DNA of 64,000 bases from an uncultured bacterium (GCA_966674685.1 CBKWJC010000009.1:25490-89489), one strand, 5' to 3'; counted from the stretch's first letter, positions 8,450 to 13,501 are shown. Numbers and translations are program-made. The notes: a model not told the origin generated them from the sequence alone.

Positions 8450-9139
8450 CTAGCCGTTCTCTCTATTGGTTTTCCCGAGTACCATACCTAATGCATGGGC
8501 GGCGGCTTGCTTCTCGGCGTCCTGCTTGCGCTTGCCCGTGCCCGTACCGAAGGGTTGACCCTTGACGCTGACGACGGCTGTAAATGTTTTATCATGGTCG
8601 GGGCCGGATTGATGGGCAATGGTATAAACCGGATTTTCGCCAAATTGAGCCAGTGCCCAGGCTTGGAAGCGGCTTTTAACGTTATCGAATGTCGGGGTCG
8701 TGTCAAGCTGCTCGACCGCAGACTGAAAGAGCGGCTGCATGTAGGCTTTAACGGCCTCAATATTGGACTGGGTATCTAGCAAATACGCACCAATCATCGC
8801 TTCGAAAGCGCTGCTCAGCAGATTTGAATTGGTTCGTCCTCCGGTTTGCTCGGTGCCTTTGCCCAGACGCAGGTGACGACCCAAATCGAGCGCGATCGCA
8901 AATTTGGTGAGCTGAATTTCATCAACCAAGGCTGCCCGCATGGAGGTCAGTGTTCCTTCTGGATAGCCCGGATAGCGCTGGTAGAGGAATTCTCCGGCGA
9001 TGTAGGTCAGCACCGCATCACCTAAAAACTCCAACCGCTCATTGTGATCACCATCGTCTGGGTACTCGTTCACATAAGAACGATGAGTCATCGCCTGTTG
9101 GAACAGTTCAACAGATTCAAATGGGGGCAGTTGTAGCAT
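8450..9139 (-). CDS. rnc: ribonuclease III
   Basis: 229 aa with the RNase III signature NERLEFLGDAVL and a C-terminal dsRBD-like region. Confidence 0.9.
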   Translation of the reverse strand: MLQLPPFESVELFQQAMTHRSYVNEYPDDGDHNERLEFLGDAVLTYIAGEFLYQRYPGYPEGTLTSMRAALVDEIQLTKFAIALDLGRHLRLGKGTEQTGGRTNSNLLSSAFEAMIGAYLLDTQSNIEAVKAYMQPLFQSAVEQLDTTPTFDNVKSRFQAWALAQFGENPVYTIAHQSGPDHDKTFTAVVSVKGQPFGTGTGKRKQDAEKQAAAHALGMVLGKTNRENG

Positions 9140-9198: not shown

Positions 9199-9933
9199 CT
9201 ACATGAATTTAGTCAGCGAAACGATACCAAAAATCATAAATAAGCTACCGCCAAGGGCAGTAACGGTACGTTCTGAGATCCTACCTGCAATTAGACGCCC
9301 ACACAAAACTGCAATTACCGCGCAAATCGTGTGGCCCAAAATCGCACCGATTGTTACACCCAAGGGATGATAAGCCGTTGCCAGCATGACCGTGGCAATC
9401 TGGGTGCGATCGCCCCATTCAGCAACAAACGTCAGCGAAAATGCCTTGGCAATGATCTGCATCGCTTGCTTAGGAACGGTCTTGGACTCGGCGGCTTCAA
9501 CAGTTTGAATGGCGGCTTCTTGCTCATCAATTGGTGGCTGATCAGACATTTTACTCGCATCGTAGAGTAATTTCAGCCCAAATCCTAAAAAGAGTGCAAC
9601 TTCTGCCACCCGCACCCATGTCGTTGGCAACTGGGCAACGGCTTGTCCCAGGGCAACGGAAAGCAGCGTCATCGCTGCTAAGGCCAGCACTACACCCAGC
9701 AGCACCCAGCGCCGCTGGTGGCGCATCGCTAAAATAGCCGCGATAAAAAATGTCTTATCGCCCAGTTCGGAAATCGTAATTAAGGTTAATCCTGCTGTAA
9801 ATGCCGCTAACATCGCCTCAAGCTCCTCTGGATCGGTGGATGAAGTGACCACGCTTGATCGTGAGCTTGAAGGAGGGCTGAGAGAATTTGGCGAACTCCA
9901 CCAAGCCCACATCGATACGTGATTTGTGGTCAC
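9199..9933 (-). CDS. UPF0016 (GDT1/TMEM165/Mnx-like) putative Mn2+/Ca2+ transporter
   Basis: Two copies of the family motif E-x-G-D-(K/R)-(T/S) are present (ELGDKTF and EWGDRTQ), in a polytopic membrane protein. The ORF starts at a GTG. An internal ATG at 9813, preceded by GAGG, may be the true start. Confidence 0.85.
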   Translation of the reverse strand: MTTNHVSMWAWWSSPNSLSPPSSSRSSVVTSSTDPEELEAMLAAFTAGLTLITISELGDKTFFIAAILAMRHQRRWVLLGVVLALAAMTLLSVALGQAVAQLPTTWVRVAEVALFLGFGLKLLYDASKMSDQPPIDEQEAAIQTVEAAESKTVPKQAMQIIAKAFSLTFVAEWGDRTQIATVMLATAYHPLGVTIGAILGHTICAVIAVLCGRLIAGRISERTVTALGGSLFMIFGIVSLTKFM

Positions 9934-9951
9934 GATTCAAGTGAACTTAGT

Positions 9952-10079
9952 GAAGGTCTCGCTTTCAAATGAACTGCGGTTCAGATCAAGCTGAACACCG
10001 TTCATTTGCCACCTAAGCCAGGTTCATCACCAGTATGTTGACCTAGGTGTACTGGCTATGCCAGCAGCTACTCCCCTTC
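9952..10079 (-). promoter_or_regulatory. probable yybP-ykoY (Mn2+) riboswitch aptamer in the leader of the UPF0016 gene
   Basis: The minus-strand RNA reads GAAGGGGAGUAGC...AGCGAGACCUUC. It has the conserved L1 GGGGAGUAG and the 3' AGCNAGACC, with a P1 pairing of GAAGG/CCUUC. Between them lie the hairpin CUGGC-AUA-GCCAG, the stem CACCUAGG/CUUAGGUG, and the hairpin AAAUGAAC...GUUCAUUU. The order matches that of the L. lactis aptamer. Confidence 0.62.
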
Positions 10080-10168
10080 TACATGAAAAAATATACCAGG
10101 TTGTTGACGGTTTAGTGCGATCGCAATTCCAAATATCGGCAATTCATGAAAAATCGTGAATAAACATC

Positions 10169-10242
10169 GGTAGGGGCGTTAGCGTAGCCATGCCCGCAGG
10201 GCTATATGGCCATTCGCCCCTACCCCAGCCATTCGCCCCTAG
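10169..10242. repeat. mini-palindromic element GGTAGGGGCGTTAGCGTAGCCATGCCCGCAGGGCTATATGGCCATTCGCCCCTACC (intact copy)
   Basis: The termini GGTAGGGGCG / CGCCCCTACC are inverted. A short duplication of GCCATTCGCCCCT follows. An interrupted copy lies at 16249-16388. Confidence 0.7.
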
Positions 10243-10270
10243 CAAAATTTTGAAAATAACCAATTAGGAA

Positions 10271-13200
10271 TTACGTCAGGTCAAACTCATCGAAGGAGAC
10301 CGTCGGTAGATCCATTGGCAGAACGGCGCGGTTAAAGCTCGCTTTCTGGCTTTGCCGCTGGGTCGCCACTTCAACTGTGACCGCTTCAATTTGCACTTCC
10401 AGACAGCCTTTCGGCACCACTAGCGGCACAACCGTCTCCAGATATCCCTGACCGTCTGGTTCTAGATCCGCCAGCCAGCGGGGGCCATCGAGAATCGTTC
10501 GCATTTGGCGATCGCTCATCCAAAACTTGACGTAGACCCGCAGCGGATGGGACGGCAAGCGCACCTGCACATCAAGCGCTTCTCCGGCTTTGAGATCACC
10601 AGATGGAATCTTCAACTGCGGCACGGGCAGAGGCGGCAGGTTCGACCAGCTATCGATATCGGGTTCAACGGCGTCATTGAGCGGGTTGGAATAGGCCGGA
10701 TCTGCGATCGCAGATGAACCCGATGCAGCCATAACGTCAGCCTCAACATCATCGACGACAATTTCATCGTCATAAATCACGACCTCATTGGCCGTCAGTT
10801 CCGCTTCTCTCGCTAGCTCCTCGGCACTGGGAGACGGATCAAAATCGGGCAAGAGCGACTCGGTGGGCAACGAGGCAGAATCACCGCTGTCGGGTTGCTC
10901 ATTTGCATCAGACGGGAAGGATTGAAATTCGCTCAGTGCATCAAAATCAACTCCATGCGGACGATAGGCCGTCGAATCCTCAATTTGCTGCATTTGTGCC
11001 GCCTGAGCATCAAAAGCGAGAGCCGAGAGTCGTGAGAAAAATCGATCGTGCAAGTTGAGAGACGAAAACGACTGCTCCAGCGGATTCACGGGTGCGGCTG
11101 TGACACCAATATCCAGATCAAATGTGGGTTCTACATTGGTTTCATCAAATTCATCAAACTCCGCCTCATCGGTATCCAGCTCGCTTGATGTTACGTCTAC
11201 GTCCTCAGCTTCTTCAGCATGCCAAGCATCGCTCAGATCCTCAGCATCGGCTGCGGCAGAGCTGACTGTCTCGCTAGTCTGCTGATTGACAACTGTTTCG
11301 AATAGCTCGGCATCATCTGTCTGTAAGCCCTGTACTGATTGAGTTTGATCAGTCTCAGGAACGGCTGCTGGAGTTGGTGCATGAGCGGCTAAATCAGTCT
11401 TTAGATCCTCCACGTCAGCCGTACTGGCAACGGCATCAGCGGCTGCTAATAGGTGATCAGCGGCTAAATCAGCGGCTGCGATCGCATCTTCACCGTGCAG
11501 GTTGCCCGTTAGCGATGGATCAATATTCGCTGCAGCGTTCGCTGCATTATTCAGTGCATGATTAGGTGCATGATTGGGTGCATCAACGGAAGACACGACA
11601 GCAGAGGGCGATTCCTCTGCCTGTTTCGTCATCTGGTTTTCCAGGTCATCCGCACTGGCCTGTGCAGCCGCTTGAGGCTGAATTGGTCGCAGCGTCGGCA
11701 GTTTGGGCAATAGCGGTTCAAAGCGCACAGAGGAATTGGCTGAAGCGGATGGGGCGGGTTGAGGAGCTGGCGGAGCAGTTGGCTGAGGCGGGGGCGATGC
11801 GATCGCGGGATCGGCAGGTTGAGCCTGATCGTGTTCGTGGCTAGCTAGCTTGGATGAACTGGTTCGAATTTGCGGCGGCAGCGACATACCCAGATTCGGC
11901 TGAAAGCGAGCAGGCTGGAACGGAATCGCTGGCGGCGCTGAAAATTCAATTTTAGGTTTAGCAGGCTGATCGATAGCTGATTCAGCCTCCGCAGGTAACG
12001 CTTCGTCCGGCTGGGTTGAGAAGTCGGCAACGGATGTCGCGACATCCACTGGAGGCGCATCAAAATTAAACAATTCAACCGGATCAGCCGCTTCCTCTGC
12101 CGCAAACACATCCTGATTTGCGATCGCATCTAGCAGTTCATTCAGATCCGTGGTGATCGAAAACTCCTGGGATGCTGAAACCAGTAGCTGTCCTTCAACC
12201 TCGGCAGTGAGCGTTACTTCACCCAGGATTAAATGCGACCGCTGAGCAGGCGGCGCGATCGCAACTTGGAACGTCGTGGGTAAAGACTGTGCCGCAACTG
12301 TCTGTTGAATTCGATCAACCGTCTGAGCAGTTTGCGGATCAAACAGACGAATGGTGAGGACGCTTGCGGGTAGCTGAGGCGAGTCCACCTGATCGGCAGA
12401 TGCAGCAGATGAATCAGCAGATGAATCGGCCAGTGTGATCGCGCCTGTCAACGGAACAGAACGGCCACCTTTGACAATATAGGCATCGGTCTGGAGCTGG
12501 AGTTGAACGGGACGACCAGCCAGCGTCAACCTATCTGCTGCGTCAGCGGATAAGGTGCGATCGCGATTCGTAACCGAATTGGGATCGACATCCCGCTGCG
12601 GATCAATGGCAGACTCGACATCTAAAAACGCCTCGTCAACCACGTCCTGCGACATCTGCTCAGCCAAGGAGCGCCAATCTGCATGAGTCGGTTGTGCATC
12701 ATCATGCGGCATCGTGGTTTCCGACGAGGGCACGGCTCCATCCCAGTCGTCTCCTAACGTAGCTGTTGCCGCATCATCAGCGTCCCCAGCAGCATCGCAG
12801 GTAGACGCATCCAAATCGGGCTGTATCTGGACAGGTTCCGGGAATTCAGTTACTGGCTCAGGATCACTTGCTTCCGCTTCGGCCAGAGACTCTGGCACAG
12901 CAGTATCCGCTGCAATTTCTTCCGGCTCATCGACATTAACGGTCTCGGCATGGGTAGGAACGTCCACCGCTTGATCCGTCTGCTCAGGCAGTGCTAGATC
13001 GGCTAAATCTAGCTGAACATCGGTAATTGAGACCGTATCTGAATTGAGATCACGGGCAGCGGCATGCAGTGCGATCGCATCAGCATGAGTCTCTGAATTG
13101 GCGCTGGACGCGTCAACAACTGGGCCTGACCAATCATCATCAACTAAATCTTCTTGCGCGATGACTTGCAGTTTGACGGAGTATAACCACCGCTCACCCA

Positions 13201-13501
13201 CAAAATCAGACATCAAATCATTCGTGCAGCGCAGTTCCCATATACCGGGGCGAAAGTGAACAAACGGCACGATGGAAACCAGACCGGAATTATTGGTATG
13301 TGCAGAACGGTTTTTGGTGCGCCAGCGGGGCGGCACATCTTCTGGAGACGTATGGCGGATTTGAATCTCAACTGGGATGTCTTTGCGGCTGGAGCGGGCC
13401 ACGATCCGATAGCGACCTTCGAGAATCTCCACGTCGGAAGATTCCAGCGGGAGCCATGAGCGATCGCCTTTCTTTTGAAGCAAAAATTCCCAGTATTCCA
13501 T
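10271..13501 (-). CDS. large acidic, mostly low-complexity protein with structured N- and C-terminal domains
   Basis: 1076-aa intact ORF. About 115 N-terminal and 115 C-terminal residues have ordinary, apparently structured composition. The roughly 850-aa centre is rich in D, E, A, P, Q and S. Confidence 0.7.
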   Translation of the reverse strand: MEYWEFLLQKKGDRSWLPLESSDVEILEGRYRIVARSSRKDIPVEIQIRHTSPEDVPPRWRTKNRSAHTNNSGLVSIVPFVHFRPGIWELRCTNDLMSDFVGERWLYSVKLQVIAQEDLVDDDWSGPVVDASSANSETHADAIALHAAARDLNSDTVSITDVQLDLADLALPEQTDQAVDVPTHAETVNVDEPEEIAADTAVPESLAEAEASDPEPVTEFPEPVQIQPDLDASTCDAAGDADDAATATLGDDWDGAVPSSETTMPHDDAQPTHADWRSLAEQMSQDVVDEAFLDVESAIDPQRDVDPNSVTNRDRTLSADAADRLTLAGRPVQLQLQTDAYIVKGGRSVPLTGAITLADSSADSSAASADQVDSPQLPASVLTIRLFDPQTAQTVDRIQQTVAAQSLPTTFQVAIAPPAQRSHLILGEVTLTAEVEGQLLVSASQEFSITTDLNELLDAIANQDVFAAEEAADPVELFNFDAPPVDVATSVADFSTQPDEALPAEAESAIDQPAKPKIEFSAPPAIPFQPARFQPNLGMSLPPQIRTSSSKLASHEHDQAQPADPAIASPPPQPTAPPAPQPAPSASANSSVRFEPLLPKLPTLRPIQPQAAAQASADDLENQMTKQAEESPSAVVSSVDAPNHAPNHALNNAANAAANIDPSLTGNLHGEDAIAAADLAADHLLAAADAVASTADVEDLKTDLAAHAPTPAAVPETDQTQSVQGLQTDDAELFETVVNQQTSETVSSAAADAEDLSDAWHAEEAEDVDVTSSELDTDEAEFDEFDETNVEPTFDLDIGVTAAPVNPLEQSFSSLNLHDRFFSRLSALAFDAQAAQMQQIEDSTAYRPHGVDFDALSEFQSFPSDANEQPDSGDSASLPTESLLPDFDPSPSAEELAREAELTANEVVIYDDEIVVDDVEADVMAASGSSAIADPAYSNPLNDAVEPDIDSWSNLPPLPVPQLKIPSGDLKAGEALDVQVRLPSHPLRVYVKFWMSDRQMRTILDGPRWLADLEPDGQGYLETVVPLVVPKGCLEVQIEAVTVEVATQRQSQKASFNRAVLPMDLPTVSFDEFDLT

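Follow-up and report, generated by a model that had tools for sequence, protein, structure and literature searches.

A stretch of 64,000 nucleotides (nt) of DNA from an uncultured bacterium (GCA_966674685.1 CBKWJC010000009.1:25490-89489), referred to as the window and used for all numbering, carries on its minus strand a predicted Mn2+ riboswitch aptamer of the yybP-ykoY class (9952..10079). It is followed on the same strand by a gene (9199..9813) encoding a UPF0016/GDT1 (TMEM165/Mnx-type) cation transporter of 204 amino acids (aa) with two repeats, as deduced from Pfam and homologues. Pfam PF01169 (GDT1) matched the protein in two stretches (E-value = 4.6e-46), and the motifs ELGDKT and EWGDRT were invariant among 25 homologues; no NCBIfam model matched it. 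In cyanobacteria, such homologues are named TMEM165/GDT1 family protein, and the family annotation of UPF0016 homologues refers to Ca2+/H+ or Mn2+ transporters. Based on membership in UPF0016/GDT1, Mn export is predicted for the window transporter, which is termed Mnx-type here. The closest relative of the window was found in a metagenome-assembled genome (MAG) of Thainema sp. (94% identity), and window DNA was met mainly in soil metagenomes.

An initial annotation made from the sequence alone (the sequence-only reading) had proposed that the aptamer ends 18 nt before a GTG opening the gene. This count is literally right (9951..9934), though it misleads, and the open reading frame (ORF) counted from GTG 9933 comprises 244 aa. 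However, this GTG was ruled out as the start: conservation in the alignment of the 25 homologues begins at M41 of the long ORF, homologues comprise 202–230 aa, and in the database the window protein is called with 204 aa. For these reasons, ATG 9813..9811 is taken as the start codon, and the distance between aptamer and start is thus 138 nt instead of 18 nt. The part of the long ORF covering 9814-9933 represents an artefact, namely an open frame running across the expression platform. In other leaders, in-frame stop codons occur within the region matching 9814-9933; tblastn matches extend into this region in many loci because the RNA platform is conserved as nucleotides.

Within the interval proposed as riboswitch by the sequence-only reading, the minimum free energy (MFE) fold is a four-way junction with -54.1 kcal/mol and z = -3.45 relative to dinucleotide shuffles. 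All sequence elements quoted in that reading were recovered at their minus-strand places, including the L1 side GGGGAGUAG (10076..10068), the hairpins UGCUGGC-AUA-GCCAGUA and GCAAAUGAAC.../...GUUCAUUUG and the 3' strand AGCGAGACC (9963..9955), and the flanks pair as P1, as had been claimed. In the aptamer, the switch helix P1.1 is formed by GAAGG (10079..10075) and CCUUC (9956..9952), followed by L1 (GGAGUA 10074..10069 / GAGA 9960..9957) and the short helix P1.2 (GCU 10068..10066 / AGC 9963..9961). The junction furthermore comprises the P2 hairpin (10065..10051), the P3 hairpin (10049..10010, stem CACCUAGG.../...CUUAGGUG) and the long P4 hairpin (10008..9966). L3 (ACAUACU, 10038..10032), whose sequence the sequence-only reading had not given, is a 7-nt one-sided internal loop on the 5' side of P3 (CACCUAGG stem). 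Members of the class have been described as a four-way junction in which P1.1-L1-P1.2-P2 makes up one coaxial leg and P3.1-L3-P3.2 / P4 the other (PMC6754395, PMC12153347). The window L3 is identical to the L3 of Xanthomonas oryzae, 'ACA48U49ACU52'; in the crystal structure of that aptamer, Mn2+ is contacted by N7 of A48, an invariable adenosine (PMC6754395). As judged from this alignment of loops, L3 of the window holds the adenosine corresponding to the Mn2+-contacting A48.

In order to place the element in its family, Rfam 15 and a model of the cyanobacterial leaders themselves were used. At Rfam gathering thresholds, the search of the whole window returned zero matches. With permissive filters, RF00080 (Manganese, yybP-ykoY) scored 24.7 bits (E-value = 5.6e-05 in a 431-nt region) as the sole significant Rfam match, and its alignment takes in GGGGAGUAGC and GUCAACAUACU. 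The gathering score of this model is 45 bits, and 20 diverse orthologous loci likewise yielded no Rfam match at gathering; taken by itself, this result speaks against the assignment. However, the validated aptamer of Escherichia coli mntP, which served as positive control (L081 5462-5558, leader of strain K-12), reached only 41.6 bits with RF00080 and thus fell short of the threshold too, so that the sub-threshold score is not decisive. Moreover, P1.1 pairing is missing from the printed RF00080 consensus, which also stops short of the AGACC strand. Failure at the threshold therefore reflects the model more than the RNA, the criterion is uninformative in this release, and it was dropped as a refutation of riboswitch identity. 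The sequence-only reading had named a cmsearch score below gathering as a finding that would count against it; formally this is what was observed, and the mntP control shows that the threshold is too strict. Pipelines relying on it would overlook mntP plus the whole cyanobacterial clade.

The covariance model R1 was built solely from cyanobacterial leader sequences. Across the 64-kb window it recognized this element alone (91.2 bits). In the E. coli mntP leader it produced an end-to-end match with 42.5 bits (E-value = 1.4e-10; runner-up in 10 kb, 14.6 bits), and in the E. coli alx leader the top match of the locus with 19.6 bits (E-value = 2.4e-4; runner-up, 5.7 bits). In the R1 alignment, the window L3 also agrees with the L3 of mntP. 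Mere resemblance is very unlikely because full-length reciprocal matches to two validated riboswitches coincide with invariant metal-site loops and a typical target gene. Judged by these sequence comparisons, the aptamer almost certainly belongs to the yybP-ykoY (Mn2+) class, and Mn2+ sensing by the window RNA is predicted from this family membership.

Conservation was evaluated for 80 cyanobacterial loci encoding relatives of the transporter, which originate from a scan with one genome per species and represent Nostoc, Tolypothrix, Coleofasciculus, Crinalium, Phormidium, Leptolyngbya, Chroococcidiopsis, Thermosynechococcaceae and others. In 78 of them, GGGAGTAG was detected on the coding strand 80-320 nt upstream of the gene, and R1 found exactly one match per locus, again in 78/80 and always directly upstream of the gene on the coding strand. 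The same anchors parsed all 79 leaders, the window counted. No aptamer was found upstream of the gene by the R1 scan in a Limnoraphis MAG (L018) and in Lyngbya confervoides BDU141951 (L057); the latter features a 340-nt intergenic region beside a divergent gene, with zero R1 matches. Among the 52 distinct aptamers aligned, which were anchored at the junction and trimmed at their variable tips, GGGAGUAGC and GAGAC (the L1 strands) were invariant (52/52) and aligned to identical mntP residues, and the columns UCAACA..CUGG at L3 showed no variation. The tips of P2, and above all of P4, differ greatly in length among cyanobacterial leaders.

In the same alignment, 96.2% of the cells represent standard pairs, and both-side changes were observed for 21 of the 34 pairs. 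None of the 500 shuffles attained any of the five covariation measures applied, and sliding the partners by 1-3 columns lowered pairing to 23-47%. Covarying pairs were distributed over P1.1 (1/5), P2 (6/6), P3 (8/14) and P4 (6/6), the change in P1.1 being GAAGG/CCUUC to GAAAG/CUUUC in Coleofasciculus. The inspection of orthologous leaders recommended in the sequence-only reading thus bore out its proposal, and the E-value of the RF00080 match, the z-score of the fold and the recurrence in 78/80 loci place the match beyond chance. Together with the reciprocal mntP/alx matches and the two Pfam GDT1 stretches, these results uphold the central claim of that reading, a yybP-ykoY riboswitch in front of a UPF0016/Mnx-type gene.

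Upstream of the aptamer, the hexamer TATATT (10095..10090), preceded by TG (10098..10097), is suggested by the sequence as a putative -10 element of a promoter. Of 78 distinct orthologous leaders, 65 have a TANNNT hexamer, mostly TATAAT, at a distance of 10-13 nt from the 5' end of P1.1, and in Nostoc (L031) a full promoter, TTGATT-17-TATAAT, was located with 12 nt left between it and P1.1; this fixed spacing of the -10 box counts in favour of the aptamer. In the window, a two-hexamer scan did not call the site. Transcription probably starts at about 10084, i.e., approximately 5 nt 5' of the aptamer.

The 138-nt stretch that separates the aptamer from the start codon is kept among the leaders as four segments designated a, b, c and d. 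Segment a (AGACCUUCACUAAGUUCAC, 9959..9941) takes in the 3' sides of both L1 and P1.1 and provides the 5' arm of a helix with b; it is gap-free and almost invariant in all leaders. Segment b (GUGGGCUUGGUGGAGUU, 9910..9894, or GUGGGCUUGGUGGAG, 9910..9896) can pair with a or c, and segment c (CUCCUUCAAGCUCAC, 9875..9861), the anti-Shine-Dalgarno (anti-SD) segment, with d or b. Segment d (9826..9811) consists of GGAGCUUGAGG (9826..9816), CG and AUG and holds the Shine-Dalgarno (SD) motif GGAG (9826..9823) as well as the ATG. Since divergent leaders could not be parsed with fixed anchors, the platform was aligned with MAFFT, and duplex energies were computed alignment-free for 69 distinct leaders with shuffled partners as control. 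Mean energies amounted to -27.1 vs. -9.9 kcal/mol (shuffled) for a:b, -22.8 vs. -10.7 kcal/mol for b:c and -18.6 vs. -8.6 kcal/mol for c:d. The real duplexes beat their shuffled partners by about 10-17 kcal/mol in essentially every leader, and the pairings a:d, a:c and b:d remained at background level in these leaders.

Platform covariation was determined from a sequence-only MAFFT alignment of 47 leaders and 500 shuffles. For a:b, 92.2% of the cells were paired. The value for b:c was 88.1%, and double changes were counted in 35 cells against an expectation of 17.6; in covariation score, both helices surpassed all 500 shuffles. Lineage-specific matched changes lend further support to b:c: in L038, a C is inserted in b and a G in c at the partner columns 48 and 83, with the adjacent pair changed from G-C to A-U. 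In L006, both b and c contain one extra nucleotide. The window and its closest relative have a loop of 30 nt between a and b, as compared with 4-7 nt in most leaders, and in the window (9917-9933) this loop contains a small hairpin of its own, CGUGA-CCACAAA-UCACG.

Folding computations indicated how aptamer and platform may communicate. The 3' half of P1.1 doubles as a platform strand, since CCUUC (and AGAC) constitutes the 5' end of helix a:b. In the unconstrained MFE structures of full leaders, P2, P3 and P4 are accompanied by c:d with a paired SD and by full a:b, which replaces P1.1; enforcing P1.1 and P1.2 costs 7-14 kcal/mol. Because of this preference, a:b is regarded as the Mn-free alternative to the switch helix. 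If the transcript stops after c and does not reach d, a free aptamer goes along with pairing of b to a (67/68 leaders), whereas a locked aptamer shifts b to c (52/68 leaders); on average, the fraction of b bound by c climbs from 0.02 to 0.68 upon locking. In full-length leaders, locking the aptamer lowers the mean cost of opening the ribosome-binding site (RBS) from 16.0 to 12.0 kcal/mol, with a fall of more than 2 kcal/mol in 55/70 leaders.

These computations are compatible with the following course of events. Without Mn, P1.1 and L1 would be unstable, so that full a:b would form, leaving c free to close on the emerging SD (c:d) and to turn translation off. With Mn bound, docking of L1 and L3 would hold P1.1; a:b would lose its base, exposing the 3' end of b, and newly made c would capture b (b:c). 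The SD would then emerge unpaired, allowing ribosomes to load and more exporter to be made. The switching decision would be taken co-transcriptionally and, in this model, has to be, because c:d re-forms at equilibrium. A purely thermodynamic switch was rejected, given that the enforced aptamer fails to free the SD at equilibrium, and the co-transcriptional version is preferred.

Several results weigh against this interpretation of the platform. With the aptamer locked, the equilibrium structure contains a truncated a:b and c:d, and the SD is still paired. The benefit for RBS opening is just 1.5 kcal/mol in the window, and the change points the wrong way in 5/70 leaders. Moreover, pair-count measures were not significant for a:b (reached by 40/500 shuffles) and b:c (148/500), which is explained by conservation of the platform mostly at the sequence level; c:d covariation was not significant overall either (49/500). 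The complementarity of b and c could partly be a by-product of the likeness of a to c and of b to d. Finally, contigs from metatranscriptomes and from a Nostoc transcriptome are long, cross neighbouring genes and are uninformative as to transcript ends and conditions. As a side observation on the computed energies, the lineage with the 30-nt a-b loop shows the smallest RBS-opening benefit.

An alternative design would combine the same Mn2+ aptamer with a transcriptional output: a:b would act as a terminator or attenuator without Mn, closure of P1.1 would lead to read-through, and c:d would be constitutive or secondary. Such a terminator design is classical for the yybP-ykoY members of Bacillus subtilis and Lactococcus lactis. 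In line with it, the P1.1 3' half is shared between aptamer and platform (PMC12153347). It also finds a counterpart in a paralogous locus, L066 2799-2950 (Thainema sp. MAG, contig_51), where a UPF0016 gene with 63% identity is preceded by the same aptamer (101 bits), by a:b and then by UCUUUUUAGA, and the site was flagged as terminator-like. At least five U within the 8 nt past a:b occur in 16/71 leaders, mostly of Nostocales. In the window, however, the tail past a:b reads GCCAAAUU with two U; no terminator-like site was called there or in Nostoc L031, the family as a whole does not preserve the U-tract, and the strong b:c and c:d complementarity would be left without a reason. An intrinsic terminator at a:b was therefore set aside for the window, and the transcriptional design is kept as an unlikely minority explanation owing to L066. 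The MAG containing L066 is also the source of the window's closest relative, and L066 is devoid of the c/d relay; a further locus (L073) resembles L066, with the U-run absent. The sequences suggest that two platform types occur on one aptamer within one genome.

Two further explanations concern the signal. The yybP-ykoY fold might respond not, or not only, to Mn2+ but to Ca2+, another divalent cation transported by UPF0016 proteins, or to pH, as in E. coli alx. The annotation of UPF0016 proteins reads Ca2+/H+ or Mn2+ transporter (PMC7380456), and the alx member links Mn sensing with alkaline pH (PMC12153347; PMC13594968). On the other hand, L1 and L3 of the window are of the canonical Mn type, L3 being that of the Mn2+-bound X. 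oryzae and mntP aptamers and not the divergent L3 of alx, and R1 prefers mntP to alx (42.5 vs. 19.6 bits), which renders another signal improbable. Still less credible is a conserved structured leader that looks like a riboswitch and lacks a ligand response, for instance a stability or processing element or a site for a protein or a small RNA: the sub-threshold Rfam score would fit it, whereas the two full-length reciprocal matches, metal-site loops free of variation and a target gene usual for the class oppose it, leaving this explanation highly implausible. The best reading, held with moderate confidence, is a yybP-ykoY-class Mn2+ riboswitch located 5' in the mRNA of an Mnx-type exporter that likely operates as a Mn-ON translational switch. 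Regarding its parts, the Mn-ON direction appears quite probable, the translational relay is proposed more guardedly as the somewhat favoured output, and the steps from a locked aptamer to more translation are putative.

Comparison with characterized members of the class provides context for this reading. The E. coli mntP riboswitch exhibits the same four-way-junction architecture and shares L1 (GGGGAGUAGC), L3 (UCAACAUACU) and the 3' GCGAGACC with the window. It likewise controls a Mn exporter, as predicted for the UPF0016 protein of the window, and acts translationally, its platform invading the P1.1 3' strand without Mn (PMC12153347). It differs in its target, MntP instead of UPF0016, and in its platform, described as a single helix, where the 138 nt of the window hold four conserved segments and three helices that exclude one another; moreover, highly variable lengths of the P2 and P4 tips distinguish the cyanobacterial aptamers. 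In E. coli alx without Mn, a strand invades L1/P1.1 (P5) and a second helix (P6) keeps the RBS in an inactive state; once Mn is present, P5 and P6 give way to a joint P5/P6 helix, which leaves the RBS strand single-stranded (PMC12153347). Equilibrium-refolded alx RNA is inactive with and without Mn, so that co-transcriptional folding is needed (PMC12153347), and a co-transcriptional decision has been reported for both alx and mntP. The switching logic is the same, with P5 resembling a:b and P5/P6 resembling b:c of the window, and a paired SD at equilibrium was also computed for the cyanobacterial leaders. In contrast to the window, which is of the four-way mntP/X. oryzae type, alx features a three-way junction, a divergent L3 and pH dependence. 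Furthermore, its RBS pairs with the disrupted P1.1/L1 strand, whereas the window SD pairs with the dedicated anti-SD c, and its P6 is the stem of an intrinsic terminator, of which none is evident in the window. Vibrio MneA, from a proteobacterial host, is a UPF0016 Mn exporter whose gene likewise follows a Mn-sensing riboswitch (PMC13274385; PMC7380456).

The surroundings of the transporter gene offered several additional observations. An RNase III gene (Ribonuclease_3 and dsrm domains; 8450-9139, minus strand) begins 59 nt past the transporter stop codon; as a conserved operon partner it was discarded, being located downstream in just 1/78 loci, namely in the closest relative. At 9244-9264 on the minus strand, a terminator-like hairpin with a T-run lies in the 3' coding end of the transporter gene, 45 nt before the stop, and is probably a chance match. 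Directly upstream, on the same strand, a 1076-aa ORF (10271-13501) without a Pfam domain encodes a very acidic, Ala/Asp/Pro/Ser-rich product of low-complexity appearance. Between the genes, ahead of the promoter of the riboswitch, lies a short dispersed repeat (10169-10245) with GGGGCGAATGGC in two copies and the inverted repeat GTAGGGGCG/CGCCCCTAC. Sequencing depth jumps about 10-fold at this repeat in two metatranscriptome assemblies, and many unrelated contigs start or stop there; it probably represents a cyanobacterial element resembling miniature inverted-repeat transposable elements (MITE-like).

UPF0016 is a standard target of this riboswitch, as reported in a 2020 review for 328/333 screened bacterial strains (PMC7380456). 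For cyanobacteria, the association was catalogued before the ligand was known, because RegPrecise (2013) listed yybP-ykoY sites upstream of COG2119, which corresponds to UPF0016/GDT1, in Nostoc sp. PCC 7120 (PMC3766115 supplementary file 1) and upstream of two COG2119 genes in Synechococcus sp. JA-3-3Ab, and additionally at ykoY in Gloeobacter (PMC3766115). The suggestion in the sequence-only reading that such control had not been described for cyanobacterial Mnx therefore does not hold. These entries concern the same RNA family, target family and phylum as the window; they comprise no analysis of structure, platform or distribution, and the organism of the window, a Thainema/Leptolyngbya-like soil cyanobacterium, is not included. 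Sites were listed in only 3/14 cyanobacterial genomes, with none in Synechocystis 6803, PCC 7002, PCC 7942, Cyanothece, Microcystis, Trichodesmium, Prochlorococcus and Thermosynechococcus (PMC3766115). In the library searched, no paper presented the connection of this riboswitch with Mnx as a finding. A 2024 study on Synechocystis Mnx refers to ManSR as the only known regulator, and the riboswitch is unmentioned (PMC11649195).

What is added here is the near-universal distribution of the element at the sampled Mnx-type genes, the annotation gap and the conserved alx-like relay platform; the known working of the riboswitch class is unchanged. The main value of the finding is that an element kept in almost all related cyanobacteria has been missed by the standard threshold and by the cyanobacterial Mn literature. 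With the Rfam 15 model and its threshold, the whole clade, and even E. coli mntP, is left unannotated. Whether the relay (a:b and c:d vs. b:c) represents a clade-wide co-transcriptional translational ON platform in most filamentous and many other cyanobacteria, a second tier beside ManSR with some paralogues of the terminator type, is judged to be evenly poised. In that reading, it would have been overlooked because Synechocystis 6803 lacks the element, according to the RegPrecise table only, and because the Rfam threshold skips it.

For cyanobacteria, the manganese supply of photosystem II must be weighed against Mn toxicity, and the ManSR two-component system is the sole regulator discussed (PMC11649195). 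The predicted Mn riboswitch at the Mnx-type gene in 78/80 sampled species makes RNA-based Mn sensing testable in this phylum, e.g., in Nostoc PCC 7120. If the proposed relay is true, the Mnx exporter of most filamentous and many other cyanobacteria would be governed by an RNA that senses cytoplasmic Mn2+ directly.

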